Source: Geosiphon pyriformis uo1 (Eukaryota; Fungi; Glomeromycota). Taken from it: a stretch of DNA of 64,000 bases. The notes beneath the pieces were generated by a model that had not been told where the DNA came from, searched no databases, and saw only the letters and a program-made list of their open reading frames with translations. This document shows positions 626 to 36,026 of this stretch, in pieces. Position numbers and translations under genes: made by a program. The number at the start of each line of letters is the position of its first letter. The stretch's first letter is position 1. The stretch is taken from NCBI GenBank assembly GCA_016748015.1, contig JAAOMT010000129.1, positions 310,001 through 374,000 on the forward strand, in the 5' to 3' direction.

Positions 626-1255
626 ATGGAGATTATTGACAGCATTTATTTACTAACACAACAACTTTTTTAACTGATCCAACAACAAGAGATGGAAATT
701 ACAATCAACCAACAAACTATCAGATACACAAACACCAAAAAAAGATCATGAGATAAAATATGGAGAAAAACAGAAAATACTGTAAACAAAATAATTACAA
801 AAGTGAAATTGGCAATAGAAACACAACCAAAAGTCACCCAATATCAAGAGTTGACTATAGAAACTTGGAATTGATGGATACAACAATTTTCAAGAAACTT
901 TTATTACTTTTATTTGGGACAACACTTAAACATTCAGGGCTTATATATGAATAAAACAAAATGATTATTTAACACAACAATACTGCAACAACTGGAACAA
1001 TTTGTGGGAAAAAACAATTTAACCACACAAGCAAGAATTATTTATTGGCTACATACTGGATTTCAAGATTGACCAGAAATCTTACTCAATCCAGAAATGA
1101 ACTCCATTACCATTAACCAAATAAAAAAAATAACCAATGCTCAATTTAAAAAATTACAGAACAAGATAACACAAGTAATTCTTGAAAAAAAAGTTCAAGA
1201 AATACTCAAAGATAGAGAATTAGAATTAAAAAATCTTGACAGAGCTCAATATTAA
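626..1255 (+). pseudogene. ORF3 of Gypsy A0, unknown protein (~210 aa), disrupted
   Basis: MEIIDSIYLLTQQL...LDRAQY*; homologous to ORF3 of A1, A2 and B. Confidence 0.75.
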
Positions 1256-1269
1256 AGAGAAGAGAATAA

Positions 1270-2076
1270 TGTTACTCATAGAATATAGGACGTATATTAG
1301 CATATAAATTGGCTAATCAGAAGTAGCTGTAGTAAATATGGAATTCTAGAATTCCTTTTAAAAGAATTGCAGAATTGCAGAATTCCAGAATTTCTCTCAA
1401 AGAAATTGCAAGATTCCAGAAATTCCAGGATTTCTGGTGTGAAGAATTAAGGAATTGAAGAATCTCATTATGTATATATATTGGTAGCATTAGAAAAAGA
1501 AAAGACAGACCTCTCAGTTTAAATTTGATCTAAGCAACCTTTCATATCACAAATATCAATAAATAATTATTTATTATTTTAATCCACTCTTCACTATCAA
1601 CATTTTATGTTGATAATAATTAATACTTAACTATATTAAAACAATAGCTCTTGATCATGGCTATTGATGGAATACTAACATTTATTACTTTGGCTTATTT
1701 TTTTATTTCTTTTATTTTTATTTTCTTTTGTTATTTTTTTTTGTTGTTTACTAATTGATTAAAGATTAAGTGCTGAATTATTAACATCAAGGATTGCCTG
1801 ATAAAAGACCTCTGCAAGTGGGTAGAGCATGTAAAAGAATTATGGATTACTTATCAGAAAAGTACTGGTCATTAAGCTGAAGAAAAAAATTGACTGAATT
1901 GCAATTCTGAGAAGCTATGGATAAACAACTATTGAATTTTTGTCTATTATACAAAGAACTCAACCAAAACCTTCAGATAACAATATCTTTAGATTACCAT
2001 CATCACAAATAGCTTCTGAGCACCAAGTTATGGGTTTTGTTATTTGATTTGAGATCTCAAATAATCACTTGTAACA
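1270..2076 (+). repeat. LTR (A-type R/U5; U3 with GAATT(C/G)CA repeats at 1340-1462)
   Basis: TG..CA termini with TGTTAC/GTAACA inverted ends, TATA-like tract ~1473, preceded by PPT. Confidence 0.88.
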
Positions 2077-7700: not shown

Positions 7701-10466
7701 TTTTAAATTAGTCTTCTGTCCATTTTTTATAGTATTTTGTGAAATTGAGAGTCAATTTGGTTAATAATTTCTTAGCTAATATAATAAAAATTTTTTTGGA
7801 TTATGATATTTGTCTCATCAATTTTTTTCTTTCTGCATTTCATTTTTTTGATGGCATTCCTATGTTCTATATTTTGGGGGATTTGGTGTTTTATAATGTT
7901 TATTGCTTACTTAAGAGGTTTTGTATTGTCTTTGTTGAACAATTGTATGATAAAAAAGAGTTAGTTTTTAATTAGAAGTGTTTTTATTATTGGAAAAGAC
8001 TTGATCTCAGAGGTCTGTTTTCTGCTTGGTTTAAGTTGGTTTGTAATTACTTGATAAATCTTGCTCTATGTTCTGATACTTAATCTTCTATTGGCATCTC
8101 CCAACTTGTAAATGTTTTTAATACTGGTGAATTTTTTTTAGTTAAATGTTGTCTTTTTAGTGCTGGTTTGGATGTTATCAATATCTAAACAAATAGATCT
8201 TTGAAAAACTTGGACATCTATAAGATAAGGTGTAATGCAGCTATATTCTTGGCCAATTTAAATCTAAGTATTAGTGTTGAGATTGGTGGTTTGATATCTT
8301 CTACAATGGCAGAATTACAAGTGATTGCTTTGGTCTTAGAATGTGTTCTAGCTTTCAGTTATGTTAGAGTGTTTTTAGATAGTTAAACCACTTTGAATAC
8401 ATGTGTTTCAGAATTGGCTATGGTTTTATCTGATTTTTATAACTATTGTTGACTTAAAACCAAAGTATTATGAATTTTATTAGATATAAAAATCTCAATA
8501 TTTCTTGGATTAAAGTCAAAAACCATTCTGGTGTCTTGGATAATAAACATACTAATATGCTGGTTGACTTAACTTCATTTTCAAATTTGTCATTTCTTGT
8601 TCTTGTTAAGAAGAGATATATTAATACTAGTGGAGTAGTGATATCTGAAAATATTTGTTATTTTATTTGCAATATGTTTAAGGCTGTTTATCATGCTTAT
8701 TGAGAAGTTGAGTCTAATTCTAGTATTATTTGTGAAAACATAATTGGGGATGTGAATTGGATTTGAACTTTGTTAATTTGGCATTTAGACTTATATATAA
8801 TATTAGATTATATGAATAGAGCTACTGCTGGTTTATATTTTTATTTTATAAAGACTTTGCATTATTAATTGCCAGTTGCTGTTCAAAAATGCTTATTTAT
8901 TAAAAAGTATTTTAGTATATTGTGTCTGCACTATAAAGAGATTAAGCTTCCTGATTATTTTTTTATTTGTATTATAAACTCTAGTGCTTGCAAGAATCTA
9001 TTTAATTCATATTGTTATCTGAGTAGAAAAACAAATCCAAGTTATGAAAAAATATGATCAAAAACGTGATAACACAGAATAACACAAAAAAATACAAAAT
9101 AATGCATAATAATTCAGAATAACATAATACAAAACTCAATAATGTGTTATAACATAAAATAATTAATTAAAACATAAGATAATTAGTAATAACATAAAAA
9201 AATGAAGCAATAACAGAAATAGTGAAGCAATAGCTAGCAAGAATAAAACAATTAAAAAGCAATCTTGTAGAACGAAAAAATATATAAAAATGAGTAATTG
9301 TAAAAGTTAAAAAAACAGCCAGAAAAAAATTCCTAAAGAATTTAATAAAGTTTTATTAATTTAAAACAATCCTTTTTCTTCTCTATTTATTAACTCTCAC
9401 TTCACAAATAGTTACTATCAACTGAAATAAATTCATTAACAAAATATTGAATAAAACATACTTATTATCATTCAATTTATATTATTGTTGTTTGTTTAAA
9501 AATCTAATTACTTTTCCATTTATTAACACTTTATGTTGATAAAATCTAACACTTAATCACACTAAAACAATAGCTCTTAATTATGGCTATTAACAGAATA
9601 CTAATTTTTTTTTCATTTATTTTATTTATTTATTTATTTTATTTTATTTTATTTTATTTTATTTTCTTTTGTTTACTAATTGATTGAAATATTGAAACAT
9701 GTGAAGTTATTGACATCAAAGAGACTGGTAAAAAATCTGTAAAACAAGAATAGAACACTTATAAAATTAAAAATAGCTTACCAAAAAAATTACTGGCCAC
9801 TATGCTGAAAAAAAAATTTAATAGAATTGCAATTCTAAAAAGCTATAAATAAAACAATACTTGAATCTCTATCTATTATACAAAGAACTTAACTAAAATC
9901 TTTAGATCACAAAACCTTCAAAAATTACCAACACCATATCATTAAGCTATTGAGCACTAAGTTATGAGTTTGTTATTTGTATTAATACTCCAAATAATTA
10001 TCTGTAACAATGTATTGTCCAATAAAATTCTGTGTTAGATTTGAATTTGTTATTTTTATGTATTCTATAGTTACTCTCCTTGTGTGTATCTAACAATACT
10101 ATATATACTGCTTTGTATAAAGGCTTTGTGTTTAGAAAGTGGTACTTAAAAGCTGTCTCTATTTTTAGATATGCCAAAACTGCTGGTATAAAAATTGCCA
10201 AATTGGTGTGAGAATTAAAGATGGCTTATCAAATTGATGTATAAATAGTAAAAGTTAGGTATAGAGCATTTATAGAAAAAAAAAGTTTAATTGGTTGTAA
10301 TGGTTTTGTGCTTCCTAATATTCATGGTTCTTTGTCTTTATTCTTTGTTGGTATTGTTAGATTGCTTGGAATTGTTGATGCTTATGATGCTAATTTTGGT
10401 TTTTGTATATTCTGTAGTTTTTTTTCTGGTATTAATAGTACAATTTCTGTTATGATAAATTCATAG
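4795..10466 (+). pseudogene. LINE ORF2 (endonuclease-RT-RNase H-Cys domain), many stops
   Basis: ORF fragments 4950..5543 (APE), 6209..7495 (RT region), 8201..8703 (RNase H), 8869..9012 (Cys domain). Confidence 0.85.
9013..10009 (+). repeat. Solo LTR, mosaic: B-type U3 plus A-type R/U5
   Basis: TGTTATCTGAGTAGAAAAAC...TCTGTAACA; TSD ATAT/ATGT; first ~300 bp match the 2377 LTR, last ~500 bp match family A. Confidence 0.85.
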
Positions 10467-11515: not shown

Positions 11516-12350
11516 TGTTACAAATGATTATTTGGGGTCTCAAGTCAAATAACAAATCTGTAACTTGGTGCTTAGTTGGTACTTGGGTGTTGATATCTGA
11601 AGATTTTGGTTGTGAAGTTCTTTGTATAATGGACAAAGATTTAATAGTTGTTTCAGTAGCCTCCCAGAATTGTAATTCCATCAAATTTTTTTCTCAGCGT
11701 AGTGGCCAATAATCCTTCTGATAAGCTATCTTCAAATCTATGAGTGTTTTACTCTTGTTTTACAGATTTTTTACCAGTCCCTATGATGTCTGTATCTTAG
11801 CACTTAATCCTTAATCAATTTAGTAAAACCAAAGAAATAACAAAAAGAAATAAAAGAAAATAAAAGAAAATAAAAGAAAATAAAGAAATAAACAAAAGCA
11901 ATTACAAGTTAGTATTCTGTTAATAGCCATGATCAAGAGCTATTGTTCTAGTGTAGTTAAGTATTAATTACTATTAACATAAAGTGTTGATAGTGGAGAG
12001 TGGATTTGGATGGTAAATAGTTATTTATTTGATATTTGTGAATAAAAAGTTGCTTAGATCAAATCTAAACTAAGAGGTCTGTTTTTTCTACTTCTAATGC
12101 TACTACTATATATACATAATTGATGTTCTATGAGATCATTCACATTTCTGAGTGATGTGCTATGATTTCTTGAGCAATGCTCATATTGCTGAGTGATGTG
12201 CTCTAATTTCTAATATCGCTCCACATTGCTGAGCAATGTGCTGTGTTTTCTGATATTGCTCCACATTGCTGAGCAATGTGCTTATGTGCTAAATACTATT
12301 CTCTCATTGGTCTGTTATTTTCTATATCTGTTTTCTTTTTATAAGTAACA
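11516..12350 (-). repeat. A1 3' LTR
   Basis: Direct repeat of 20751-21585; adjacent PPT (reverse complement of TTATCTCCTCCTTTTT). Confidence 0.95.
12142..12285. repeat. U3 tandem array, ~40-bp units with palindromic core CACATTGCTGAGCAATGTG
   Basis: Four units here; also at 11448-11510, 21375-21520 and 21590-21705. Confidence 0.85.
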
Positions 12351-12364
12351 TTATCTCCTCCTTT

Positions 12365-13000
12365 TTAATATTAAGCTCCGTCAAAATCTTTGTTTTGAAT
12401 TAATTCCAATACTTCTTTTTCAAGTATTGTTTGTTCGACTCTGTTTCTTATGTTTTCTACTTGTGTATTGTTTATTCTTCCCTATTAGTTAATGGTTATG
12501 GTTTCCATGTCAGAGTATAACAGTATTTTTGGATAGTTTCGAAATATGTTGTGTAGTTGGTACATTGTTTTAACATGTAGTGTTGAATTTGTTTTCTTTC
12601 TGATAAATTTTTTAATTTGTTGTATTATGTCTTGGTTGAATATTCTCTTGGATTTATCAGTATACAACTCTTGAATATTTAATTTTTGACCTAACTGATA
12701 GTAACAGTATGATATTGAAAGTTGTTTTGTCTATTGCTTCTAATTCTCTTTTGTAAGTTCTTCTGTTGGTGCCATAATAGGTATTTTCCCAAAAGTGTTC
12801 TTTACTTTTTCTATTATGTTATCTAACCAGTTTTTACTATTCTTTAGTAATTGCTGATATGAAGTGTTTTTTGTCTTTCTTTTGGTGTTTTGATAGCAAA
12901 TTGTTTGGTTGTTGATGACAATTTCCATGTCTAACTGTTGTTGACTTAATGCTTGGGACAGTTGTTGAGCTATAATGTGAATGTGATCTGGTATTTCCAT
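12365..13000 (-). pseudogene. ORF3 of A1 (212 codons, one frame, internal stops)
   Basis: MEIPDHIHIIAQQL...DFDGA(Q)Y*; ORF pieces 12740..13000 and 12485..12667 are in frame. Confidence 0.8.
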
Positions 13001-13055
13001 TTTTTTTGATTGCTTTTGTCACATGTACTGTGTCTTTATATCTTCTTTTGGTTGT

Positions 13056-14438
13056 TCAATTCGATGTGTTTGGTTCAATAACTATAATTGGTTCCAGATC
13101 TCATGGAATTTCATCTGGTTGAACTAGTATTTTTTGTATTCCTAGTTGTGGAATATTATTGGTGGATGATGATACTATCTGGTAATATGATTTCAGTCGA
13201 TCACCATGTGCTGTTTTGGCTAAAATTTTGTTGTCCCATCTTAATTTATAAGCTCCATTTTCAAGAATTTCTTCTATGTGAAATTGTCTGTCTCATTTGG
13301 GGTCAAATTTTCTATTCCATTGTTTTTCCACTTTGGTATGATGTAGAAGTACTTTGTTTCCAATTTTGAATTCAACTGGTTTCTCTGGTAGTTGGTTATT
13401 GTGTCTTTTTTTTTGTTTTTCTTGTGACTTTTGGATGTTATTAGCTGCTTTTCGCCATTTATTTTCTAATGTTTCCATTAAGTCATATGTTTTTCTTAGC
13501 AACATTTCCTGAAAATTATCTTTGGCTATTGGTTCTGTTGGGTAAGTGTTGATTTCTACCTCAATTGATAATGTTGCTGTTCTATCATATACTAATTCAA
13601 ATGGTGTTGTTTATGTAGTGTCTTGTTTTATTGTCCAATAAGTAAATAATATTGATGGTATGAACAAATCTTATTTATCTTGGTTTTCTTGACTGATTTT
13701 GGCGATTGCTTCACACAATGTTCTGTTAAATCTTTTAACTAGTTCATTGGTTTGTGGATAATATGGTAATGATAATAGTCTTTTGATTCCAAATCTCTGA
13801 CTTAATTCTGCTAATGTTTTGTTCACAAAGTGAGTTCCTTGATCTGATAATAGTTCTTTTGGATATCTGTGTTGACAGATCAAATCTTAATGAATGAATT
13901 TGGCAATGAATTCTGCATCTGCTCTTTGAATGACTTTTGCTTCTGGCCATTTAATGAGATAATTCATAACTACTGCAATATATCTGTTGTCTTTGCTGGT
14001 GATTGTTAATGGTTCGACTAAGTCAATTCCAATGCGATCAAATGGTTATCTCACTTTGATTGGTCTTAATGGTTCACTGGGTCTTGTTCCTCTTCTTCTC
14101 TGACAAGCATCACAATTTTGAACATATTGAATGATGTCTGAATACATTGATGACCAATAGTATCTTTTTCTGGTTTTTTCTATGATTGCTTCTTTATAAA
14201 AATGTTCTGCTGTTGAGTCTGAGTGCATGTTGAATAATATTGTCTCTTTCTCTGGTTCTGTAATTATTCTGATTGGTTGATCTGGATTTCTTTTGTTTTT
14301 CTGGTAAAGTATATTTTGATGATTGATAAAATATTTTGATTGTTGTTTAATGTTCCTTTGTTTTTTTTGAGATAATTTCTTCTTGAACAGTTGAATATTT
14401 ATATAATATTGTAGTTGTTGGTATTTTTGTATATTCAT
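13056..14438 (-). pseudogene. Integrase ORF of A1 (HHCC-DDE-GPY/F; no chromodomain seen)
   Basis: ATG 14438; HSDSTAEHF..RYYW..CDACQ; LLSDQGTHF; YPQTNELVKRFNRTL. Confidence 0.9.
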
Positions 14439-14468
14439 GTTTTGTTATATTTTTGGTTTGAAATGTTT

Positions 14469-17400
14469 TTAGATTTGTCTTATTTGTGATAATCTGTCAG
14501 CATTTCTATTGTCTTTTCCTTTTTTATAATGTACTGTATAATTAAATAGTAAAAGTTCTATTTTCTATCTGATATGGCAATTGTCTGCAAATTCTTGTTT
14601 TTGGATTGAAGTCAATCTTTTGTAATTAGTGTATACTTTAAACTTTTGGCTCAAGTATTTCTTCTATTTGATAACAGCCCAATAGATAGTTAAGTGTTCT
14701 AGTGCTGGAGTTCCATAGTTCTTTTCAGCTGGACTTAAGCTTCTACTGGCATAAGCTACTGGATGTTCTCTTCCATCTGGTTTTTTCTGTGATAGTACTG
14801 TCCCCAATGCTTGGCCAGATGCATTGGTAGTAATAATGAATAGTTTGTTGTAATCTGGATACATCAATACTAGAGCTTGAATAAGCTTTCTTCTTAAGAT
14901 ATCAAAAGCTTCTTGTTGAGTTTCTGTTCATTTGTACTTTACATTTTTTGTTTAAAGTTGGTATAGTGGCTGGGCTATTTTGGAAAAATCCTTAATGAAG
15001 TGGTGATAATATTCAGCAAATCCCAAGAATGCTCTTAATTCTGTGAGATTATTTGGTATTGGAAAGTTCTTGACAGTCTTAATCTTATCTGGATCTGTTT
15101 TTATTCCATTTTTGCTCACCACATATCCCAAAAACTTGAGTTTAGTTTTCTCAAAGAAACATTTGGTTGCATTTAATTTCAGTCCGGCTCTTCTTAATCT
15201 TTCAAACACTTGTTGAAGATAATGCAAATAATCATCAAATGTTTTTGAGAACACATTGATATTATCCAAGTATATGACTACTGACTTCCATAGTAGTCTA
15301 GTGTATACAATTTCCATTAGTCATTAAAATGTGGCTGGTGCATTCATTAATCCAAATAACATGACTTCAAATTCAAAATTTCCTTCTCTTGTGATAAATG
15401 CTGTTTTCTTTTTGTTGGCTGGATCCATGACTACTTGCCAGTAACCACTATCCAAATCCAGTGTTGAGAATCATTTATTTCCTTCAAAAACATCGAACAG
15501 CTCTTGAATTTTGGATATTGGTTAACTATTTCTTTTGGTTACTCTATTCAGTTTCCGGTAATCCACACAAAAGCAGATTTTCCCATTTTTCTTCCAAACT
15601 AGTACCACTGGTAATGACCATGGGCTCATTAATAGCTGAATTAGCCCATTATCAAGCATTTAGTTAATTTCTTAATGAATGATCTCATGGCTAGCTGGTG
15701 GTACTCTGTATGCTTTTTGTTTAATTGGCATTGTATCTCTAGTTTTGATCTGATGCTGAATGATGTTGGTTCTGCCAAATTTGTTTTCACTGGCAAAAAT
15801 ATCATTGAAGTTACTGAGTAATATCTTTAGTTGCATCTGTTAGAGTGGGTCTAGATTCCCCATGTTTATTTGTTTCAATTGTTCTGGTTGGAGCAGATAA
15901 CATTCGCTTCATTTATAGATGGTTTGTGATATAATGTTCACATATCCACAAAGCTGTGGAAAATCTGGAATATAGTTTGGTGGTTGGTCCTCAACTTCAG
16001 TGGTTAAATATCCAATGATGGTTCCTTTTGGTATTTCAATAACACATTCTGTTGTGTTGTAGATAAAAATTTTGATATTTTTGGGGCTATTGGCTAATAT
16101 GTAGAGATTGGTGAGTTCAATTTCTCTTGATTCATAAATGGTAGCTTCTGCTTCAAACAACTGAGCTTGATTCTTTACTTCTCTTTTTATAGTTAACATA
16201 TACTGGTTATATGATGGAATGAAAATTGTGTGACGGGTTGAGATAATTTCTCTTTTGTTAACAATTTTTTTCTCTGCCATATTAACTGGTATATCTATTC
16301 TACCTGTTGATCCGAATCCTTGTATCCCTTTAGCAGTAATCTCCAATTCTTCTTTGTTTCCCACTGACACTAGCTGAGCTACTTTTACCAGAGATAAGAA
16401 TATTGTTTGTGCTATCTTTTCATTTAGATCTATGATATATGTTTTTTCTGAATCATTTTGTAGCATAGCAATGATATTTTCTATGTATCTTGTGTCAATT
16501 ATTTCTCCTCTGATGTTGATTCCCTTTTTTGCTAAGCTACTCCTGAATGCTAATTGAACCATTGTTGTTGCTGGAATTTCCAGCACTATTTTCAAATTGA
16601 TGCAAGTACATAAGTGAGGTTCCAATTTGATGGAATTTTTTTCTGGATATCTCAAATCAAATTCTGCATCAATATCATGTGTGTGTTCAGACATAATACC
16701 TTCATTATTATCACTGAACCATTTCAGTTCTTGCTCCTTAGTAAGGTCAGGAAGGGTGATATATGTTTCGGAGTTTGAATCAGGGTTCAAATTATTGTTA
16801 TTTTTGTTGCTGTTTTGAGTGGAGCTAGAACCAGTGTTTTCATCATTATTGTTGTCAGAATTTGAATCGGGATTGAAAATTGATTCCAATTCTGATGCAC
16901 AGTTGCTCATTGGTTTGTCTTCTTCTGGGATTGTGTAGATCATGTATGGTGGTGGATTGTAAATAAAATCACACTCATTACAATACTTGAAGTCACATAG
17001 GATCAAACAGTGGTCACATAATCAGGTGTTTATTTCTTCCAAGCATTGTTCCTGTTCCTCTCTGATGGGTGCTAATTGTTGGTAATGTTCATGGAATTCT
17101 TTTGAATTGTCCTCAATGTTGCCAAAGATGTCAAAAGTTTGAACGTATTCAGGTTTAGGAAGCAATAGAGGATTGTTCTTGATTTTCAGTAGTTCATTGG
17201 TTGTTATGCCTTCTGCTTTTGCATATGCTATTCTCCAGAGTTCGTGTTCATCATGAGGATATTCTTTTAATCATCGCAATGCTTTTTTCCAGGCATTGTT
17301 GATTGGTGTGCCTTTGTGTACCCAGTCATTGATTAGGATTGTATATTGGCATATTTTATTGCATGTTCTTCTTTGTCCAGGAATGTTATTTCACATTCCT

Positions 17401-20400
17401 TTGTCTGGGAGAGTTTTTCCACAAGTTAAACATGGTGTATTATCTCATTTTTTCACTTATTTTGGCCTTCCAAAACGTTCAATGAGACATGTGTGGCAAT
17501 AAAACTTAGTTGCTGTCTGGTATTTTTCGTCATTACCACAGCATGCACCCATTGAAAACAATTTCTTGCCATAATTGGCACATATAAGCTTTGATTAACA
17601 ATAATTGGTTGTGATAGTGCATAAGTATATACATGGTAAATAGTGGTTGGTGTTGAAATTTCTTCGTTCTTTTTCCCTTTTCCTTTGTGGTTATTTTCTT
17701 CCTATTCCCAAGTTGTTGGTAGTTCATTTTGATTATTGTCAGTTCCCCAGGCTTGATTCAGATTCCAGATAAGTTCTTCTGTTTGTTTTTTTTCTCTTAT
17801 CATCTTAGGATAATATTGATGGTAATTTGTTGTGATTGTTTTTATTGGTCCAGAAAACTTAATAGGCTTCCCAAGTAGGTTTCTCCTTTTCTTCTTCCAA
17901 TTTAATAAGTAGAGCTGATAGCATGGTGATGGGTTTAAAATGACCACATGTGGCTGGTACACATGTGTGTCATCCATTCTGGCTAAGCTGGAGCTCTTGG
18001 GTGTTCCAGTCAAGTGTTGCATTGATTTTGGACAGCCAGTCATTACCTACCAGTGCTTGGTATTAAGTGGCTTCCATGACTAATACCTTAATTGGTACAG
18101 TGATGTCATTGATTTCTATAAGCAAGTTATCTATTTCACCAATTGGAGTCTTGGTGGCTCCATCAGCTGTAATTATTCTTGCACTGGCAGCTTAATTAAC
18201 TCGGTGACCTAATTGGTCTATAAGCTGTCTTGTGATGATGCTGCCAGTTGATCCACTATCTAGAATCAGTTTGATAGATTAACCATTAATTTTAGCATCT
18301 GTGTACATTGCCATAATAGGTTTTTCCTTGAGTGTGGCTCCACTAAACAAAGAGGTTTCTGTTAGTTCCTCGATTTCAAAAGGAAATATTGCTGCTAGAG
18401 ACTCGTCTTCTATAACAGTGGCTGGTGGAATATTGGTAAGTGGTTGCTTCTGGTTGGGTTCTCAGGTGTTGAGTGAAGCATCTTCTGAAGTAACCAAAAG
18501 GCTTAAATAGTTCTGAGAACTTGGGTTTTGAGTATACCCAGTTCCTAAACTCTGCTGTTGTAATCTTGACGGCTAGTTGGATGAACTAAAAATCAGTTAG
18601 TAAACAACCATTACCAATTTCCAGTTTTGGGTGACTCTTGATCTAGGGTTTTCTGATGTCATTTGAATGGGATTGGGTGATGATGTTTGAACTGCAGATG
18701 TCTGATAGATTATTTGTGGCTGTGGCTAATATATAGGTTGAGACTGCAGTTGATAAATGATGAGTGCTGTTGGCTGATAAATTGGCAGTTGATAAATTTG
18801 TAGTTGCATCATAAATATGTAATTTGGTTGATATATTGCTGAGGTTGATTGATAATTCAGAGCTGAAAACCTGTGATCAGGGTTTCAATATTGATTTTCC
18901 GATCATTGGTTTTCTATTTTTAACCAACAATCAATTCTCAAATGTCTTTGTTTACCACAGTAGTGGCAGATATGTGTCTTTTGCTGCCATGGCTAATTGA
19001 ATGATGATGAAAAACACGATTGATTTTGTGGGTGATTTGTGATTCCTAAATTATTGTGTCATTGGAATGGCTGATAAATTGCGCGATTATCAGCTAAGTA
19101 CTCTTCCAGCTTCTGATTAATGGAATCACTAAATTGTTTCAATTTGGAATCCAATTCAGATGATTTATTCATCACTAGATTTACAGCTTGGGCATGGTTG
19201 ACTTTGAGTTCAGCTGCTTCAAAATCTTTGGCATTGTTAACTGTAGCTTGAAGGTCTATTAAATGCATTGAGCATACATGTTGGAGGATGCTACTGCACA
19301 GGCCTCTAATAAATTGGTTTAGGATTTGTGGCACTGTAAAGTAATCAGTCTGAATTGCTTGAATTTGGCACAGATTCCTATGGAAGTGTCCTAGGTAAGT
19401 AGTAACTGCTTCATTTTCCCCTTGTTTGATAGTGGTGAAAGTGTTTACTAGCCGATTAATACTATTGTTGTTGCTGAAGTATTGTAGAAATGCAAGCTTG
19501 AATGTAACAAAATCTTGAGGTTTGTTAGCCAAGCTTTAATATCATGAATTGGCAGTATTTTAAAGAAAGTAAGAAATGGCCTGCATGGCTCTGGCATCAT
19601 TTCAGCCATTGACTGTGATGGCTTTCTCCACATCATTTAGCCACACTTGGGCATTATTTTCTTTGCCAGTGAATTTCTCAAGTTTTGCTATTAGAGCATA
19701 GGCCATTGGATTGACATTTGGTTGTTGTAGTTGTTGTTGTAGCTGTTGAAGCAGCTGCTGTGGTTGTTGAGGTGGTTGGAGTAGCTATTGTTGTTATTCA
19801 TCGATTGGTAGAGCTGGATTAATCCTGATTATTGGAGGTAAGTGTTGTTGATTATTGATGTCAGAGTTTTGATTATTCTGATTGTGCTGCATTTGGAAAT
19901 TTGGAGTTCCGATTTCTGGATTTTCCAAATTTGGATTTTGCTGAGTCTGAAAATTTGGGGTTTTAATGTTCAAGTTTTCTGGAATTGGGTTCTGGTAAGT
20001 AAATTCTTGATCTTTAGATTCTTCTTCCTCTTCTTCTTGTTTTTTCTCCAATTTCATTACTTCCCAGGGACTCGCAGTTCCGAAATCTGGTTGGAGTGAC
20101 AGAGATCAAAGTCCTGATGGCATTGGCAATTGGGACTTAAATCTTTCAAAATATGTGCCATATAGTCTTAGAAGATCTTTTTTCTTTTGTTTACTCTGAA
20201 ATGGGAATTGTCCAAAGATTAATGTAGATGCGCCTGTTGATGTGATGTTGATGGCGCTTCCAGGTGTATAGTGATATAATGGGTTTGTTGGTGATTTAAC
20301 TCTGGTTTTCTTTCAAGTGGGTGGTTGTATTTGTTTTGGTGTTACTGCTGGTGTTTGTAATTTTTCTTTGTCTTTATTGGCATAAGTAATTGGGTATCTT

Positions 20401-20690
20401 TGTTGTGTGTAATGTTTAATTTCTTTATTAATCTCAGTAATGATGAATGTAAAATTATAATTTGTTGGTAAGCTGGTGTTTTGGATTAATTTGTGGTAAA
20501 AAGTTTCTTTTGCTGATTCAGTATTTACTAATGTTTCTAACAAATAGACAATTTTTTCATTGACGTAGAAATTGAAGGCTGATTGTACTAATATCTGATT
20601 GTGGTTCAATCTCAAGTGTTGACAGTAGTGTTAAAATAAGAATTTTGTGAATTCTAAATGGTTTGCTCCTATACTTTCTAATTCTGTCAC
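14469..20690 (-). pseudogene. A1 polyprotein: N-terminal extension, Gag (capsid, CCHC), aspartic protease, Cys-rich domain, dUTPase, RT, RNase H; single frame
   Basis: CHYCGKQRHLRIDC knuckle ~18930-18968; LDSG 18252-18263; dUTPase motifs in 15909..17006; YLDN and LDLDSGYWQ (RT); TNASG..HPVAYAS (RH). The domain-bearing ORF pieces share one frame. Confidence 0.9.
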
Positions 20691-20730
20691 TGTTGATTTA
20701 TTTGTTGGTGTTGGTTCTCTGTAAGATTAT

Positions 20731-20748
20731 ACCTCACAAGGAGCACCA
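20731..20748 (-). promoter_or_regulatory. Primer binding site TGGTGCTCCTTGTGAGGT (elongator tRNA-Met-like)
   Basis: 18 nt starting TGG, 2 nt from the 5' LTR; complement resembles eukaryotic elongator tRNA-Met 3' ends. Confidence 0.75.
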
Positions 20749-20750
20749 AA

Positions 20751-21585
20751 TATTACAGATAATTATTTGGAATCTCAAGTCAAATAACAAATCCATAACT
20801 TGGTGCTTAGTTGGTACTTGGGTGTTGATATCTAAAGGTTTTGGTTGTGGAGTCTTTTGTATAATGGACAGAAATTTAATAATTGTTTTAGTAGCCTCCT
20901 GGAATTGCAATTCCGTCGAATTTTTTTCTCAGCATGGTGGTTGGTAATCTTCCTGATAAGCTATCCTTAAATTTATAAGTGTTCTACTCTTGTTTTACAG
21001 GTCTTTTACCAGTTCTTATGATGTCTGTATCTTAGCACTTAATCTTTAATCAATTTAGTAAAACCAAAGAAATAACAAAAAGAAATAAAAAAAAATAAAA
21101 AAAAATAAAAAAAAATAAAGAAATAAACAAAAGCAATTGCAAGTTAGTATCCCGTTAATAGCTGTGATCAAGAGCTATTGTTCCAGTATAGTTAAGTATT
21201 AATTATTATCAACATAAAGTGTTGATAGTGGAAAGTAGATTTGGATGGTAAATAGTTATTTATTTGATATTTGTGAATGGAAGGTTGCTTAGATCAAATC
21301 TAAACTAAGAGGTCTGTCTTTTTTACTTCTAATGCTACTATTATATATACATAATTGATGTTCTATGAGATTGCTCACATTTCTGAGTGATGTGCTATGA
21401 TTTCTTGAGCAATGCTCATATTGTTGAGTGATGTGCTCTAATTTCTAATATCACTCCACATTGCTGAGCAATGTGTCATGTTTTCTGATATTGCTCCACA
21501 TTGCTAAGCAATGTGTTTACATGCTAAATACTATTCTCTCATTGGTCTGCTATTTTCTATATCTGTTTTCTTTTTATGAGTAATA
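20751..21585 (-). repeat. A1 5' LTR
   Basis: Direct repeat of 11516-12350, abuts the PBS. Confidence 0.95.
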
Positions 21586-21787
21586 TTATTTTCTAACATC
21601 GCTTCACATTGCTGAACAATATGCTGTGTTTTCTGACATTGCTCCACATTGCTAAGCAATGTGCCATGATTTCTATCATTGTTCTACATTGCTGAGCAAT
21701 ATGTTCATGTGTTACATACTATTCTCCTATTAGTCTACTATTTTCTTATATCTGTTTTTTTCTATGAGTAACATTTTTTTCTTCTTT

Positions 21788-22420
21788 TTAATATTGAACT
21801 CCATCGAAATCTTTGTTTTGAATTAATTCTAATACTTTTTTTTCAAGTATTGTTTGTTCGACTCTGTTTCTTATGTTTTCTACTTGTGTATTATTCATTC
21901 TTCCTTATTGGTTGATGGTTATAGTTTCTATGTCAGAGTGTAACAGTACTTCTGGATAGTTCCGAAATATGTTGTATAATCAGTATATTGTTCTAACATA
22001 TAGTGTTGAATTTGTTTTCTTTCCGATAAATTCTTTAATTTGTTGTATTATGTTTTGGTTAAATATTTTCTTGGATTTGTTGATATACAATTCCTGAATG
22101 TTCAACTTTCGACCTAACTGGTAGTAGTAGTATAAAATTGGAAGTTGTTCTGTCTATTGCTTTTAATTCTCTTTTGTAAGTTTTTCTGTTGGTGCCATGA
22201 CAGATATTTTCCCAAAAGTGTTCTTCACTTTTTCTATTGAGTTATTTGTCCAGTTTTTGTTATTCTTTGGTAGTCACTGGTATAGTGTATTCTTTTTTCT
22301 TTGAGTGTTTTGATAGCAAATTATTTGGTTGTTAATAACAATTTCCATGTCTAACTGTTGTTTACTTAAGGCCTGGAACAATTGTTGAGCTATAGTGTGA
22401 ATATGATCTGGGATTTTCAT
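21788..22420 (-). pseudogene. ORF3 of A2
   Basis: MKIPDHIHTIAQQL...DFDGVQY*; collinear with A1 ORF3. Confidence 0.78.
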
Positions 22421-28584: not shown

Positions 28585-29684
28585 TGTTACAGGTAAACTT
28601 GGTGGATATGGGAAATGGTAATGTTTGGTGTTCTCAATTATTGATGAATGCGTCTTTCACGTAATTCTGTTGGCTTAGTCTTGATTATCAGTCTCTGAAG
28701 ATCTATTCCTGGATGTGAATTTTACCCATTGAGTTCTTTGGTTATAAGGCACAAAGTTTGTCTTTTGTCAATTGCAATGTTTTTCATAAATATGAGCTTT
28801 CTTTTCTGAGCTAATGAGCATAGTTGTTAGGGTCTGGTGTTGTCTTTTCACCCTTCTGGTAAGCTAACAAGATAATGTTAATATCCAAAATTTAGGAGGA
28901 GCTTCTCTCTTTTACCAGGCTATCATGAAGTCTATTCCCAGACAATCGATTTTACTATGTTGTCACTCCACAAAAAATTAAGACAGAAAAAAAAAGAAAA
29001 AAAAAAAGAAAAAAAAAGAAAAAAAAAAGAAAAAGGATAAATTAGTATTGTTAATTGCCATGATCAAGAGCAATTGGTCCAAATCATTAATAGGTTTGAG
29101 GCGGTTATGCTAAGAACATCTGTTCTAGAACGGAGGTACGAAACAAGGATTAATTCATGTAAATTTCATGAAGTTCGAGAACATGAATTCACGATTCTGA
29201 TTTCTTTTAATAATTGATTTATTTCAGGAGATGAACTAGGGAAGATAATAAAGGATGAAGGGATATGGATATTTTAATTTCTGGTCTAGAGGTTTGTATC
29301 TATTTTTTCTTCTCTGCCTTTTCTCACTTCTACAACTACTTGCTTTTATACATTCTTTTAGTTTTACAGAATTGCTTTCAATTGTCTCGCTATCGCTAGT
29401 TATTGCTTTGTTGTTTCTGTTTATTGCTTCATTTTTCTACGTTATCACTAATTATCCTATGTTATAACACGTTATTTGATATTATTACATGTTATTCTAT
29501 GTTATCCTGCGTTATAACACATTATCCTATGTTATTGCATGCTATTCTGTGTTATTCTGCATTATAACATGTTATCCAATGTTATAACGTGTTATCCAAC
29601 ATTATTGCGCATTATTCTGTGTTATGTCATGTTTTTGGTCACATTTCTTTATAACTTTGGATTGGTTTTTCTACTCGGGTAACA
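28585..29684 (-). repeat. B 3' LTR
   Basis: Direct repeat of 36027-37122. Confidence 0.95.
29441..29630. repeat. U3 array of ~19 phased 10-bp units RTTATNNNNN
   Basis: gttat/attat recurs every 10 nt; also at 36879-37068 and, on the other strand, 2430-2570 and 9065-9200. Confidence 0.9.
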
Positions 29685-29698
29685 TTATCCCTCTCTTT

Positions 29699-30433
29699 TT
29701 AAAATTGAGCTCCTGCGAAACTATATGTATCTGTTATCGTGGCTTTGTTCATGTAATGTTCGATTGTTGCCTTGAGTATTGCCTTTTGTTGGTCTTCAAA
29801 CTGTTGATTGGTTATTCATCCTATGCTGTTAACTATTATGGTTTTCATAGATCCGTTCAGTAGTACGTTTGGGCAATGTTGGAAGGCGGCATATAGTCGG
29901 TATACTGCTTTGTAATATAGGGTCAGGTTGTTTTTCCCTATGAATTTTTTTACTTGTTGTATTGCTTCTTTGTTGAACGTTTTCTGGCTAAGGTCTTTAT
30001 ATGGTGTTTTCAAGTCAAGCTGTTCTCCAATTTTGTAGAACCAATAAGCTGGAGGAAGTTTTTCTTTCCATTCCTGGGCGTTGTCAGGTGTCTACTCCCC
30101 TGTTTTGGGGAGTTCAGTCTCATGAGCTAAAGCTTGTTTTATTTCTTCGAGCTCGGAGACCAAGTATTTTCTTTTGTAACCTTTTTCTCATTCTTTGCCT
30201 CATTCTTTTTCACCCCCTGTCCGAAAGCAATTTTTCCTCCCACATTGTCTTTTGGGTGGTGGATAGGAGAAGGAACGTTTAGTTCTAATTGAACTCTCAT
30301 CCTCCCCTCTCCTGCTCTTATCTTTGTACTGTATCTCTTTTTTATCAATTGTTATTTTTATTTGAAATGTCGATTTTTGAATTGTTTCAAATAATTGTTT
30401 AGATAATTTTAAAATTTGATCTGAAAGGTTCAT
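29699..30433 (-). pseudogene. ORF3 of B (~245 codons, disrupted)
   Basis: MNLSDQILKLSKQL...YKDLSQKTFNKEAIQQVKKFIGK...FAGAQF*; protein-level similarity to A ORF3. Confidence 0.78.
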
Positions 30434-30513
30434 GTTGAAATTTCTATCATTTCTTGCTGCTTTTTGGATGCTATATATATTTGAATTCCCCAATTTAATT
30501 TGCTGCCCATTGT

Positions 30514-31881
30514 CTACGTTTCGATAACGATGATTGGTTTTAGATCTCATGGTATATCTTCTGGTCTGATTAATGAAATTTGTGTTCTTAGTTGAGGTAC
30601 TGATGACAATGATTCCTGTTTTACATGATAAATTTTTAACCAATTTCCATATGCTACTTTCTTTAAAATTCTGTCTTCCAATCGTAATTTGTAAGCTCCA
30701 TTTCCTAATGCTTCGTGTATGTGGAATGGACCATCCCACTTTGGGTCGAACTTTCCACTCTACTGTTTCTCAGCTTTTGTACGATGTAACAGTACTTGGT
30801 CTCCAATCTTGAATTCCATTGGTTGTTCTGGCAGGTGTTTATCATGTCTTTCTTTTTGTCATTCTTGAGCGTGACTAATATTGTTAGCTGCTGTTCTTCT
30901 ATTGTTTTCCAACATTTCCATTAGCTGGTACGTTTTTTGGTGTAAGGTAGCCTCAAAATTCTCTTCATTGATTGTTTCTGTTGGGTATGACGGTATCACT
31001 CATTCAATCGGTAACGTAGCTTTTCTTTCATAGACTAGTTCAAACGGTGTGAACTGAGTCATATTTTGTTTCAATGTTTGGTATGCAAAGAGTACAGAAG
31101 GTATGAATAAGTCCCATTCTTGTCTGTTTTCATGACTTATTTTTGCTAGTGCTTCACACAGTGTTCTATTAAACCGTTCTACCAGTCCATTCATTTGTAG
31201 GTGGTATGGTAACAATAAGAGTCTTTTTATTCCAAATGATTGGCTTAGTTCAGTCAGCGTATTATTAATAAAGTGTGTTCCCTGATCAGATAATAATTCT
31301 TTCGAACATTCATGTCGGCAAATTAGGTCTTGATGCACAAATTTGGTGACTGTTTTGGTGTCAGCCACTTGAATTGCTCTGGCTTCTGGCCATTTTGTAA
31401 GATAGTCTATGGCTACAGCGATATAGTGATTTCCTTGGGATGTAATTGAAAGAGGTCCAACCAAATCGATCCTAATTCTATTAAATGAATTTCCAACTGG
31501 AATGGGTTGAAGTGGTTCTGTTGATTTTGCTCCTCCTCTTCGCTGGCATATGTCACAATTGAGCACGTATTCAAAAATGTCTTTGTACATCATTGGTCAA
31601 TAGTATAAGTTTAGTGTTCTTTCAAGGGTAGCATCTTTGTTAAAGTGTCCTGCAGTCAGATCTGAGTGCATGCTATATAGTATAGTTTTTCTTTCACTGT
31701 CCGTAATTAGTTGTTGTGGGTTGGGGTGGTTTCAGTGTTCTCATCAATATAGTTGGTTGTCTTGAATAAAATAATTTCAGGCTTGTTTTTGTATGGTACT
31801 CTGTTTCTGTTGAGATAATATCTCCTTGAAACGTAGTGTCGATAAGTACTGATGTAGTCGTTGATAAGTGAGTGTGTCCAT
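30514..31881 (-). pseudogene. Integrase ORF of B (456 codons)
   Basis: ATG 31881 (MDTLTYQRL); HSDLTAGHF, CDICQ, DYLTKWPEA, SDQGTHF, NGLVERFN. Confidence 0.9.
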
Positions 31882-31891
31882 GGGTTTGGGA

Positions 31892-34800
31892 TTAGGTTTG
31901 TGGCATCTTTGACAAATTGTTGGCATTGGTGTTCTTGGATCCTTCTTTGTAATAAACTTTGAGTAGGAATTGTTGCAAATAAGTACTCCATCTTGCATAT
32001 TTTCCTTCTAGTTGTGGATTGTTGAGTAACCAAATAAGTCCTTTGTGGTTGGTATATAGGTCAAATGGTTGACTGAGGTAATGTTTTCAAGTCTGTATGG
32101 CCCAATAAATAGCAAGACATTCCAGATCTGTTGTGCTGTAATTCTTTTCTGCTGGGCTAGTGCTGCAACTAGTGTAGGCAACTGGGTGTTCTCTATTGTC
32201 CGGTCCTATCTGTGATAAGACTGCTTCTAGAGCATTTTTCGAGGCATCCGTAGTGACAATGAACCGTTTAGTGAAATCTGGATAAATCAGGATTGGGGAT
32301 GTGATCAATCACTGCTTGAGATAGTTGAATGCTTTCTGTTGATCTTTCTTCTACAAGTACGGTATGTATTTGGACAACAATTGATGGAGTAGTTTTGCGA
32401 TGTTCGAAAAACCTTTGACAAATCAATGATAATATCCTGCTAATCCTAGAAATCCTCGTAATTCTCTGAGGTTGATTGGGGCTGGAAAATTCTTGACTTT
32501 TTGTACTTTATCTAGATCGGGTTTAACTTCATCTTTGCCGATTACATGTCCTAGGAATTTTAACTCGGTTTTTCCAAAGAAGCATTTCTTGGGATTGAGT
32601 TTCAATCTGGCACTACGAAGGCATTCAAAGACTTGTTGCAAGTGGAGCAGATGGTCTTCGAATGTTTTGGAGAACACGTTTGTGTCATCTAGGTAGACTA
32701 CTACTGATTTCCAAAGGATTCTTTTGTATACTACATCCATCAGGTATTGAAACGTGGCAGAAGCATTACAAAGTCTAAAAGGCATTATGTTAAACTCGAA
32801 GTTTCCATCTCGAATGGTAAACACTGTTTTTCCTTTGTCTTTGGGGTCTATTTCAACTTGCCAGTAACCACTTGCTAAATCTAATGACGAGAACCATTTC
32901 TTTTTCCCTAGATTGTCCAGAATTTCCTGGATGAGGGGAGTGGGATAACTATCTCTTCGCATGACACTATTTAGTTTTCGATAATCTATGCAGAATTGCA
33001 CTTTTCCATTTTTCTTGGTAACCAAAACTACTGGCGAGAACCAAGGGCTTAACAATTCTTTGATTAGGCCATTATCAAGCATCTGTTGCACTTCTTGCTT
33101 AATTAGGTTATTGCCAGATAGAGGTACGCGGTAAGCTCATTGCTTAATTGGTTGAGCATCTCCTGTATCAATCTGATGCTTCATGATGTCGGTGCATCCG
33201 AACTCATTTTTACTGGCAAAGACATCGGCATACTGATTCAGAAGGACTTTGAGTTGCATTTGTTGTAGGGTACTTAAATTTCCTAAATTCAATTTATTGA
33301 TCTCTTCTGGTGTGAACAAGTAACTTTCTTTTGGCAAATTCCATACTTGTGAGATAATGTCACAGAATAAGAATAATTGTGCGAAATCTGGAATGGACTG
33401 GGGTTTTTCAGGATTCTGACTATCTGCAGATATGGAACCGACGAGGGTCCCTTCGGGGATTTTAATGACATCTTTTGTCGGGTTATGGATGAGAATTTTG
33501 AAGTGTTTATGGGCTTTGGCTGGTAGGTATAGATTAGCAACATCAGCTAGGGAACAGATTTCGGGACTGGCTTCAAATAATAGGGCTTGATCTTGGATCT
33601 TTCAATTCACCTTGAGGATGTATTGTCAGTATGGGGGAATGGAGATGACGGTGTCAGTATAGATAAATTCTACCTGGTCACTGTCTTCCTCTGTGAAATT
33701 AACTGGTACGTTTCCTCTTCCATTTGATCCAAACTCGTTGATTCCTTGGACAGTAAGGCCTAACTCTTCTCGGGTTGTTACCGGGGTTAATTGGAGTATT
33801 TTGACTAGGGGTAGAAAGATAGCTTGGGCAATCTTTTCTTGTGATTCTATTTTGTAGGGTCTGTTTGAATTGTTTTGTAGCATCACAATGATGTTTTTTG
33901 TGTAACCAGCATCAATGATTTCTCCTTTTATGTCGATTTTTTTCTTGGCTAGATTATATCGAGAGGCAACTTGTACTATTGTACTAATAGGAATTTCTAA
34001 CACTATCTTAAGATCTATTTTTACAAGGGAATGTAGGACTATAATGATGGGTAATTGTCCGAGATATCATAGGTTGAAACCAGCATCGGTGTCATACACT
34101 TTTTTGGGGCAGATTCCTTTCTCGTTGTCACTGTACCATTTTAGCTCTAGTTCTTTGGATAGATCAGAATACACAAGATACTGTTCTGTTTCGGTATCCT
34201 CAGTTGGATCTTGAAACGACATGTCCTCAGTAATCAATACCTTTTCTTTGGGTTCAGGTAGTTTGGTGATTGGAAACAGTATTCTTGGAGGCAGATTGAA
34301 CATGAGATCACATTTATCGCAGTACTGGAAGTAACAGGGGATCAAACAGTGATCGCATAGTTTGGTATTCAAATCGGCCAACCTTTGCTTCTGTTCCTCA
34401 CGAGTTGGGACCAATTCCTGATATTGGTTCTGAAATGCATCTGGGTCATCTGTGAAGAAATCATCTTTGGGGTAGTCAGGTCCAGTATATTCGGGCATCC
34501 AAGGGTTGTCCTTAATTTCTCGCATTTCTTTGGGTGTGGCGCCTTCGGCCTTGACGCTTGCCATTCTCCAGATTTCGTGGTCATTGTGTGGATAACCGTC
34601 TAGCCTGTTGAGTGCTTGTTTCCAAGTGTCCTTGATGAGGGTTTCCTTTTGTACCCAATTATTGATTAATATGGTGTATTAACAAGCCTCGTCACATGTT
34701 CCTCCTCTGCCAGGCACATCATTCCAGAGTCCTTTATCTGGCAGGATTTCGCCACATGCGAGGCACGGTGTGTGGTCCTACTTGTCTTGTCATTTTGGTC

Positions 34801-35964
34801 ATCCAAATCTTTTTAGTAAACAAGGCCTGCAATAGTATTTGGTGACGGTGGGCCATTTTTTGTTGTCCCTAATACATGCGTCCATAGTGGATAGTTTTTT
34901 TCCACAATTAACACATATTAGTCTTGGGGGTTGGTAAAATAAGTTTCTTTGGTCCGAGGTTACATATCTTAGTGATAACAATTGGGGTTCTTCTTTGGCT
35001 CTGCCTTTTCCTTTTTCTTCCCAGATTGGTGGTGGGAGTAATTCAGTTTGATAATCATCTGCCCATGAAACCTGATAGGTCTCAATGGTTGGTGGCATTG
35101 ATGTGTCTTCAAATTCAATAAGGGGTTCCTCGGTATATTGGTTTTTAAAGTGTCCGCACATAGCTGGAACTCGGACATGCTGTCCATTGAACATGAGTTG
35201 AAGTTCTTGGGTGTTTCAGTTGAGAGTAGCGTTGGCTTTTGACAACCAGTCATTTCTTATTAGAGCTTGATATTGAGTAGCTTCCATAACAAGTACTTTG
35301 GTAGGGATTTGGATTCCATTAATCTCGAAGGAGAAGTTGTCAATTTCTCCTATCGGGGTTTTTGTGTTCCCATCTGCTGTAATGATCTGGATGGTAGCAA
35401 CACGGTCTACTCGGCGACCTAGTTGGTCTATGAGCTGTGTTGATTCCAAGGGTGTGGATTTCCAGGAGTTCATGGTGTTTCCAACTGGGTTTCCAGGGGT
35501 GGGTTGAATATAATTCTACTTTGGAGTGTTTGATGATATGATGGAGTTGTTGGGAAGAGAACCCTTGGTTTCTTGTTAACCGTAAACTTGGCTTGGGCAG
35601 TTACGGGATTGTTGGATTTGTTTTCATATTCCTCAGAGTTGAATTCCACTGGTTGTTGTACTTGGGAGAATTGTTGTGCCATGTAATATTTAATGTCTGT
35701 ATTGATTATGCACAAAGTTTCAGCGATTGCTTGGGTAGTCATGGCTGTTGAGTACCCTAGTAAGCTTTGATGGATTTGTTCTCCAAGTCTTCCTGTATCA
35801 GTTGCGCGGCCTAACAAGCAGTCAATTTTTGCGTTGATATAGTTACAAAAATCACTTTCTGTGTAAGCGGTTCCTGCTGGTATTCCTAAGTCTTTTCAAA
35901 AGTATTGAAATAGTGCTTTTCTGTATGAGGAGTGGTCCTTTCCTATTGTTCCAATAGTCACCAC
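31892..35964 (-). pseudogene. B polyprotein: N-terminal extension, [deletion], PR C-half, Cys domain, dUTPase, RT, RH
   Basis: ORF pieces 35470..35817, 35216..35473, 34799..35194, 34067..34564, 33626..34003, 32423..33091 and 32087..32308. Confidence 0.9.
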
Positions 35965-36006
35965 TTTTATGTATTTTTGGGGGTGCTCTGTTTCTGTGGA
36001 TTTATA

Positions 36007-36024
36007 ACCTCACAGAGAGCACCA
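36007..36024 (-). promoter_or_regulatory. Primer binding site TGGTGCTCTCTGTGAGGT
   Basis: Same position as the A1 PBS, 16/18 identical. Confidence 0.8.
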
Positions 36025-36026
36025 AA

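Follow-up and report, generated by a model that had tools for sequence, protein, structure and literature searches.

The window, that is, the whole stretch of 64,000 nucleotides of Geosiphon pyriformis DNA analysed here, is AT-rich and eukaryotic and is packed with nested retroelements, among them four Ty3/Gypsy elements (E1, E2, E3, and E4). LTRs, PBS, PPT, gag, and the order RT-RNase H-integrase place these elements in Ty3/Gypsy, with a dUTPase upstream of RT, and the Pfam-type domains detected in them were gag, dUTPase, RT, RNase H, and integrase; a protease was not located in the Ty3/Gypsy elements of the window. Element E2 (11516..21585, minus strand) is full-length and is flanked by a 4-bp target duplication (ATAA). 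Its features, all on the minus strand, comprise the 5' LTR (20751..21585), the PBS (TGGTGC..., 20732-20748), gag (19062-19535), dUTPase (16302-16676), RT (15003-15713), RNase H (14481-14912), the integrase core (13560-14147), the pol stop (13056-13058), and the 3' LTR (11516..12350), in which the U3 enhancer occupies about 12120-12350 and the LTR TATA lies at about 12114; the two LTRs are 91% identical and contain the same 19-bp palindromes. The insertion site of E2, with its 4-bp duplication, is the 3' LTR of E3, a 5'-truncated element, and the first part of this LTR (21590..21773, minus strand) holds a U3 with three A-type palindromes, the remainder being found at 10835-11511. Element E4, of family B (28585..37122, minus strand), is full-length with LTRs at 28585-29684 and 36027-37122. 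The 3' end alone of E1 is present, on the plus strand, and its 3' LTR (1270..2076) joins a C-type U3 to an A-like TATA/R/U5 part. A solo LTR at 9013..10009 (plus strand) combines a B-type U3 with an A-type downstream half, and 2377-3253 (plus strand) is likewise a solo or truncated LTR with a B-type U3.

The dUTPase lies upstream of RT in each of the three elements in which this part survives (16302-16676, 25680-26054, and 33719-34093, minus strand) and may counter uracil in cDNA. The PBS at 20732-20748 and the one just inside 36027, both on the minus strand, read TGGTGCTC..GTGAGG, which we take to resemble the 3' end of tRNA-Ile(UAU). Elsewhere in the window, a degenerate gag fragment (43987-44397, minus strand) is 35% identical to the gag of E2, with no pol or ORF3 found nearby, and related degenerate repeats at about 4800-8500 and 56000-58700, in opposite orientation and 64-72% identical, are possibly LINE remnants, a guess based on motifs. 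An exon of a PP2A B56 regulatory subunit (about 50681-51019, minus strand; Pfam B56, E 4e-25) marks a host gene in very AT-rich DNA.

Comparison of the LTR pairs revealed 73 transitions and 0 transversions for E2 (11516-12350 versus 20751-21585) and 93 transitions and 0 transversions for E4 (28585-29684 versus 36027-37122), so that transitions account for 166/166 differences. All C contexts are affected, CpG most strongly, with 19 of 24 CpG sites changed in E2 and 51 of 82 in E4. This decay is an unusually pure C-to-T process, by methylation decay or a RIP-like mechanism; the part of the literature drawn on here reports RIP signatures as not found in Gigaspora and Mucoromycotina. Dating of the elements by their LTRs was rejected because every difference within an LTR pair is a transition.

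ORF3 is a coding gene under purifying selection

An additional gene called ORF3 lies between pol and the 3' LTR. Copy 2 (family A, element E2) occupies 12365..13000 on the minus strand, with 211 codons, 5 internal stops, and no frameshift. Copy 1 (family C, element E1) is found at 626..1255 on the plus strand (209 codons, 5 stops), adjoining an A-like integrase, and copy 3 (family A, element E3; 21788..22420, 210 codons, 5 stops) and copy 4 (family B, element E4; 29699..30433, 244 codons, 4 stops) are on the minus strand. Coordinates, strands, and the position between pol and LTR had been given in the earlier note for all four copies and proved correct. All of them run in the sense direction of pol, from an ATG to a point some 15 nt short of the LTR's TGTTAC. 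That every element copy retaining the region carries ORF3 is borne out by a six-frame HMM search, in which exactly four loci in the window scored an iE of 1e-72 or better (next best 0.2), and by the correspondence of these loci to 4/4 integrase C-termini of the window. The N- and C-terminal protein patterns described earlier are visible in the alignment, and copies 2 and 4 match each other in BLASTP with an E of 2e-25.

Two other points of the earlier description had to be revised. Where two ORF3 families had been recognized, three are present, A (copies 2 and 3), B (copy 4), and C (copy 1), since copy 1 is just 42-44% identical to copies 2 and 3. The four stretches had also been presented as open frames and none of them is open, the internal stops numbering 5, 5, 5, and 4. 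The other five frames contain 9-18 stops as against the 4-5 in the ORF3 frame, and frameshifts are absent. In alignments, intact relatives have W, Q, or R at the sites of 19/19 stops, which fits C-to-T decay. Copy 2 shares 79% identity over 211 aa with the gene model P0005.

Codon-model analysis (GY+F3X4, free kappa) gave ORF3 an omega of 0.16, with an lnL of -2441.5 versus -2495.8 at omega=1, an improvement of 54 units, and the integrase C-terminus had the same omega; a grid confirmed both optima, and the codon alignments were protein-guided, which may lower omega for distant pairs. The value is far from 1, the figure that the earlier note had named as speaking against a selected protein. For copies 2 and 3, the synonymous fraction was 0.48 as against 0.37 under a spectrum-matched null that preserves the strong transition bias, and 7 of 2000 shuffles reached it. 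Plain NG86 ratios (0.23-0.41) were replaced by this shuffle test and the codon model because transition bias and shifted-frame shadows made them untrustworthy. The best 19-residue Kyte-Doolittle mean was 0.27-1.29 in 7/7 representatives, so that, as judged by this hydropathy scan, a signal peptide or transmembrane segment is absent. The proposal of a selected accessory protein unlike env is upheld by the omega, by the rejection of neutrality for copies 2 and 3, and by the absence of a hydrophobic segment. These results show that ORF3 is a coding gene under purifying selection.

Range of the family and features of its members

More than 100 G. pyriformis gene models encode ORF3, in five families. 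In a homolog search with 131 matches among 2228 candidates, the 120 matches listed comprised 119 G. pyriformis gene models and one protein that is the window's own. One gene model matches copy 4 plus its flank in near-identical pieces, and the gene models P0005, P0010, and P0011 match the window's ORF3 families from end to end at the protein level. The C type is common, P0011 being the closest for 54 of 125 proteins. A HMMER search against 1.84 billion representatives yielded 118 matches, which add families D and E and the distant proteins P0165 and P0178; 20 of the 90 new ids were looked up, and 18 were from Geosiphon and 2 were metagenome clusters. A tree separates the ORF3 groups, its long branches being unsure, and 23 of the 218 proteins collected, some of family D, are gene models fused to an integrase tail. 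A third homolog search, within one length class, returned 12 proteins, all already found, no relative from another named fungus appeared in these searches, and among viral contigs there was neither a match to the PPT motif nor a relative of P0165. The top 'Mucoromycota' cluster in the ESM Atlas may be the ORF3 family's own.

A metagenome contig, L001, represents an independent Ty3/Gypsy element with pol (one stop), spacer, open ORF3, and LTR. Its pol is 54-57% identical to the RT and integrase of the window, and its ORF3 of 230 aa (L001:2456-3145) contains 0 in-frame stops versus 13-27 in the other frames and runs from 3114 onward through the PPT into the LTR. In 4/4 window copies and in L001, the interval from pol to the 3' LTR holds a frame that is conserved and under selection, and the position of ORF3 between pol and PPT is fixed in independent elements. 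The CpG depletion of L001 (0.2) resembles that of E2. The pol of L001 is nearly intact, and its U3 carries T-rich TTCTTAAT-like repeats, noted by eye.

At the end of ORF3 in E2, a conserved DNA motif, GGAGCTCAAT (decayed here), and the PPT occupy 12351..12379 on the minus strand and overlap the coding region. The terminal F(D/A)GAQ(Y/F)* had been regarded as part of the protein pattern, probably wrongly; it is not a protein motif of the whole family, since L001 keeps the DNA GGAGCTCAAT-PPT-TGTTAC and reads it in another frame as ELNLEEKIML, with the frame running into the LTR. Among the 218 proteins collected, 58 have GAQY-type ends and 15 have ELSLEEE-type readings, the latter type being that of family D and P0165. 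Because other families read GAQY in another frame, it is likely a DNA motif, and what is conserved at the end of ORF3 is likely DNA or RNA beside the PPT rather than a peptide.

Upstream of ORF3, the 55-nt spacer that follows pol in E2 contains a TATA-like box with one mismatch (13034..13042, minus strand), a candidate internal promoter. Exact TATAWAWR boxes are found in the other copies at 585 (plus), 22463 (minus), and 30479 (minus), so that 3/4 copies have one, at -41, -43, and -46 before ORF3. On the sense strand of the 6.3-kb interior of E4, the sole TATAWAWR is the one before ORF3, and the sole TATAWAWR of L001 lies at -126 from its ORF3. No copy of the A-type palindrome was found near the internal TATA. 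The frame offset between pol and ORF3 varies among copies, which leaves read-through of the pol stop and a constant frameshift out of pol without support, and a fungal branch-site consensus is absent within 120 nt upstream of ORF3 in the four window copies. An internal promoter would be the simplest explanation of the TATA-like box before ORF3.

The ORF3 protein was modelled from 49 sequences as mainly helical, with a pLDDT of 76 and a pTM of 0.67; a first model from 8 sequences (pLDDT 47) was discarded. Residues 1-40 form a helix and a beta-hairpin in the model, 42-55 a flexible linker, and about 58-205 a helical core. Pfam gave no match at the curated cut-off for the 4 window copies or the 49 members, PHROGs gave nothing below an E of 0.001, and Foldseek with the whole-chain pLDDT-76 model gave 0 matches at E<=0.001 in PDB and BFVD. 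No significant DNA-binding fold was detected in a VIA fold search of 48,161 chains (best Z 3.8), a result that does not imply fold novelty. The novelty of ORF3 stands, since no Pfam, PDB, or viral-fold match was obtained. Weak fold leads were a MinE domain for residues 1-46 (Z 3.8, 45 aligned, rmsd 3.1; best Z 3.0 in a second look) and a SopB-DNA complex for the core (Z 2.8, 86 aligned, rmsd 4.9). The MinE domain has a dimer role. A weak profile match to DUF1016_N (PF17761, the N-terminal domain of YhcG) extended over 102 columns with a probability of 23% and a score of 29.7 versus 21.7 for the best of 30 controls, figures obtained with a profile of family D and metagenome sequences for a lead picked post hoc from a Pfam E of 0.037; with an alignment of all families the probability was 3%, and against YhcG alone 0.1%. 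ORF3 and DUF1016_N share a colinear YxxIG...G...RxY..F...GKL in the profile alignment, but the matches to this domain and to a ParB/SopB-type DNA-binding domain are far below library-wide significance and are leads only. A match of the 8-sequence profile to HIV gp120 (E 0.0018) vanished with 49 sequences and was therefore rejected as compositional. Neighbours in ESM Atlas feature space, found with two different members, were a closterovirus coat-protein cluster (0.93) and the RegA translation repressor (0.90-0.91), with recognition scores of 2027 and 2186, below the reliability line, and a low number of shared features (156); a closterovirus or flexuous virus coat protein is absent among the Pfam and fold-search matches listed.

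A motif of the form [RHK]x2-5PY, defined as a PY-type nuclear-import motif in the cited part of PMC2408616, occurs in the linker of 6/7 family representatives (chance 1-5% each), with the reservation that it was noticed first and counted afterwards and that the ORF3 families are mutually related. In family A it falls in the linker region of pLDDT<50; it was found in 0/49 family C models and 0/4 window copies. Among the representatives, the five from Geosiphon have a pI of 8.4-9.7, and the two from metagenomes are acidic overall (pI 5.4 and 5.9).

ORF3 and the neighbouring U3 arrays

Each ORF3 family adjoins its own U3 repeat array, a pairing that rests on four element types. The A-type U3 contains 19-bp palindromes with a period of about 40 bp (12141, 12182, 12222, and 12262 in the 3' LTR of E2, minus strand), and 12/12 matches in the window fall in A-type U3s (chance mean 0.01). 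In the B-type U3, 12-bp ATAACRYGTTAT palindromes form a 10/20-bp periodic array, with 12/12 matches in B-type U3s (chance 1.4). The C-type U3 is characterized by 8-bp GAATT(C/G)CA repeats at 1340-1435 (plus strand), with 5/5 in the U3 of E1 (chance 0.6). These E1 repeats contain TTCnnGAA units, and the array presumably resembles heat-shock elements.

When E1 was compared with E2 and E3, transversions per site amounted to 0.019-0.025 in the integrase, 0.04-0.05 in the spacer, 0.20 in ORF3, 0.29 in the upstream U3, and 0.03-0.04 after the LTR TATA, whereas E2 and E3 differ from each other by 0.01-0.07 throughout. The integrase tail, spacer, and post-TATA LTR of E1 are about as near to E2 and E3 as these are to each other. 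Between E1 and E2/E3 the integrase tails are 75-78% identical versus 42-44% for the ORF3s, whose synonymous sites are saturated. The confinement of the divergence to ORF3 and the upstream U3 indicates that ORF3, PPT, and U3 enhancer were exchanged as one block, bounded close to the beginning of ORF3 on one side and close to the LTR TATA on the other. ORF3 copy 1 on its A-like integrase is, by these profiles, a recombinant cassette, and the solo LTR at 9013 is a second U3 mosaic, its U3 being of the B type and its second half of the A type. As judged from such comparisons, ORF3 is inherited and exchanged together with its U3 array, and this exchange of ORF3 and U3 enhancer as a single cassette appears to be new. 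One template switch and normal strand transfer would move the two neighbours together without any protein-DNA pairing; as this suffices, the linkage of ORF3 and U3 does not imply such a pairing.

Candidate functions and comparison with known systems

Our favoured reading, held tentatively and a little short of an even chance, is that ORF3 acts in the nucleus on its own LTR, which it would recognize by sequence and either activate or free from silencing, in a way comparable to Tas or VANC. On this reading, the dUTPase-bearing Ty3/Gypsy lineage has a soluble accessory protein whose gene is probably transcribed from its own TATA box just past the pol stop, and which would enter the nucleus through the PY-type signal in the flexible linker. 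Of the two predicted parts of the protein, the N-terminal helix and beta-hairpin module may oligomerise and the basic helical core may bind DNA, as the weak matches suggest. The protein would bind the family-specific U3 repeat array of its own element and would then either activate the LTR or lift silencing by host methylation. The C-to-T decay of the LTR pairs speaks for pressure from the host. TEs of Rhizophagus are CpG-methylated and produce small RNAs, according to the cited part of 10.1101/2021.03.30.436303. Among the roles put forward in the earlier note, that of transactivator or anti-silencer gains circumstantial support; tandem U3 arrays are common and may have host factors as binders. 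The integrase chaperone, another of those roles, is disfavoured because ORF3 was swapped between lineages with near-identical integrases. A more specific claim, that a retrotransposon-encoded activator or anti-silencer without a solved fold relative and its U3 array form a swappable 'key and lock' by which sister families escape silencing independently in a heavily C-to-T-mutated genome, we consider possible and, on balance, doubtful.

A different role, unlikely and still worth serious weight, is that of an RNA-binding factor that exports or protects genomic RNA, like CERV or Rev, or suppresses small-RNA silencing, the link to U3 being merely physical. The basic, soluble nature of ORF3 and its PY-type motif would suit such a factor, as would the closterovirus coat-protein and RegA neighbours in the Atlas, though both Atlas scores fall below the reliability line and few features are shared; CERV of Cer1 offers a precedent (PMC10309623, in the part cited), and small RNAs are produced from Gypsy elements in Rhizophagus (10.1101/2021.03.30.436303, likewise). 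However, a swapped cassette keeps most of its RNA from the other parent, a poor fit to recognition of a specific RNA element outside ORF3 and U3. We regard it as improbable that ORF3 works in the nucleus as an adaptor which, in the manner of Bet or Vif and without sequence specificity, disables a defence protein of the host (a methyltransferase, a chromatin silencer, or a deaminase), and that its fast divergence comes from an arms race. The heavy C-to-T mutation of the elements, the faster divergence of ORF3 than integrase (30% versus 66% identity for copies 2 and 4), the free exchange between pol lineages, which fits a host-facing role, and the precedent of foamy-virus Bet (PMC3185757, as far as cited) all speak for it, but it leaves unexplained why family-specific U3 arrays change with ORF3, and the low omega, a gene-wide figure, gives no sign of net positive selection.

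Very little probability is given to a partner of integrase or Gag, either a chaperone or a targeting factor replacing a chromodomain. ORF3 directly follows pol, and no chromodomain is evident in the pol tail, which stops after a GPY/F-like stretch (by eye; SH3_Tf2-1 annotation), but similar integrase tails carry strongly divergent ORF3s with saturated synonymous sites, and ORF3 occupies a frame separate from pol and has a TATA-like box of its own. Less probable again is a role in spread from one nucleus or hypha to another, as an env-like protein or a movement protein, suggested by the env position of ORF3 and by the gp120 match of the first profile; the hydrophobic segment is absent, the model is mainly helical, and the match was lost with the larger profile. 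That ORF3 is a gene-like non-coding 3' region, as the stops breaking all four window copies might suggest, has practically no probability and is refuted by the omega, the shuffle test on copies 2 and 3, and the open frame of L001, to which are added full-length gene models in several families and the pLDDT-76 model derived from the alignment. The preferred reading remains an activator or anti-silencer of the element's own LTR, which would work like Tas or VANC while belonging to neither family.

LTR elements with additional ORFs at the 3' end have been described before, but to our knowledge almost none of these ORFs has a function assigned. ORF3 is a real, undescribed accessory protein family within this known class; a description of it was not found in a literature search by title and start of abstract, which did not extend to the Geosiphon genome paper or to the supplementary files and TE library belonging to PMC11952901. 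In plants and fungi, the cited part of PMC7264820 lists env-like sense ORFs (Athila, Bagy2) and antisense ORFs (Grande, RIRE2, Retand, and Boty of Botrytis), which like ORF3 are conserved between pol and 3' LTR, that of Grande being nuclear with its own promoter. In contrast to these, ORF3 is in sense orientation yet lacks a membrane segment and showed no similarity in the searches run, and the Boty ORF is antisense. Bdelloid rotifers have dUTPase-bearing LTR elements with modular, exchangeable non-env ORF3s (PMC5408684, in the part cited), but these encode enzymes (GDSL esterase, DEDDy exonuclease) or env-like proteins, whereas the Geosiphon ORF3 has no match to a catalytic family. The C. elegans LTR retrotransposon Cer1 likewise encodes a novel accessory protein, CERV, which is nuclear (PMC10309623, same portion), as is predicted for ORF3, but CERV is made from a spliced mRNA and acts in RNA export, whereas the window copies of ORF3 lack a branch-site consensus.

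The favoured reading takes its layout from Tas and its evolutionary pattern from VANC. In the cited part of PMC3185757, foamy-virus Tas (Bel1) comes from an accessory frame located past the enzymes and ahead of the 3' LTR, with an internal promoter and targets in U3, both of which we infer for ORF3, and a second accessory frame enters the 3' LTR, as does ORF3 in family D and L001. Foamy virus is, however, an animal retrovirus with env, no link of ORF3 to Tas in sequence or fold emerged from the library searches, and the internal TATA of ORF3 has no U3-type site nearby. VANC of the Arabidopsis VANDAL elements is likewise an accessory protein encoded by TEs, and it outpaces the core enzyme in divergence; tandem repeats specific to each family accompany it, the protein and its tandem targets diverging together, and the host is one that methylates its TEs (PMC5735166, as far as cited). 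VANDAL is a DNA transposon, though, VANC has DUF1985/DUF287 domains, for which Pfam gave no match in the 4 window copies or in the 25/34 families listed for the 49 members, and the binding and demethylation shown for VANC are proposed for ORF3. With LTR sequences at 41.2% of the G. pyriformis genome (PMC11952901, part cited), an encoded family-specific anti-silencing switch, if real, would help to explain LTR expansion. For annotation, more than 100 'hypothetical' Geosiphon genes become copies or fragments of the ORF3 retrotransposon gene, and full-length natural ORF3s from several families are now at hand together with candidate target repeats. If the more specific 'key and lock' claim is true, ORF3 would be to retroelements what VANC is to its DNA transposons, and would match Tas outside the retroviruses.
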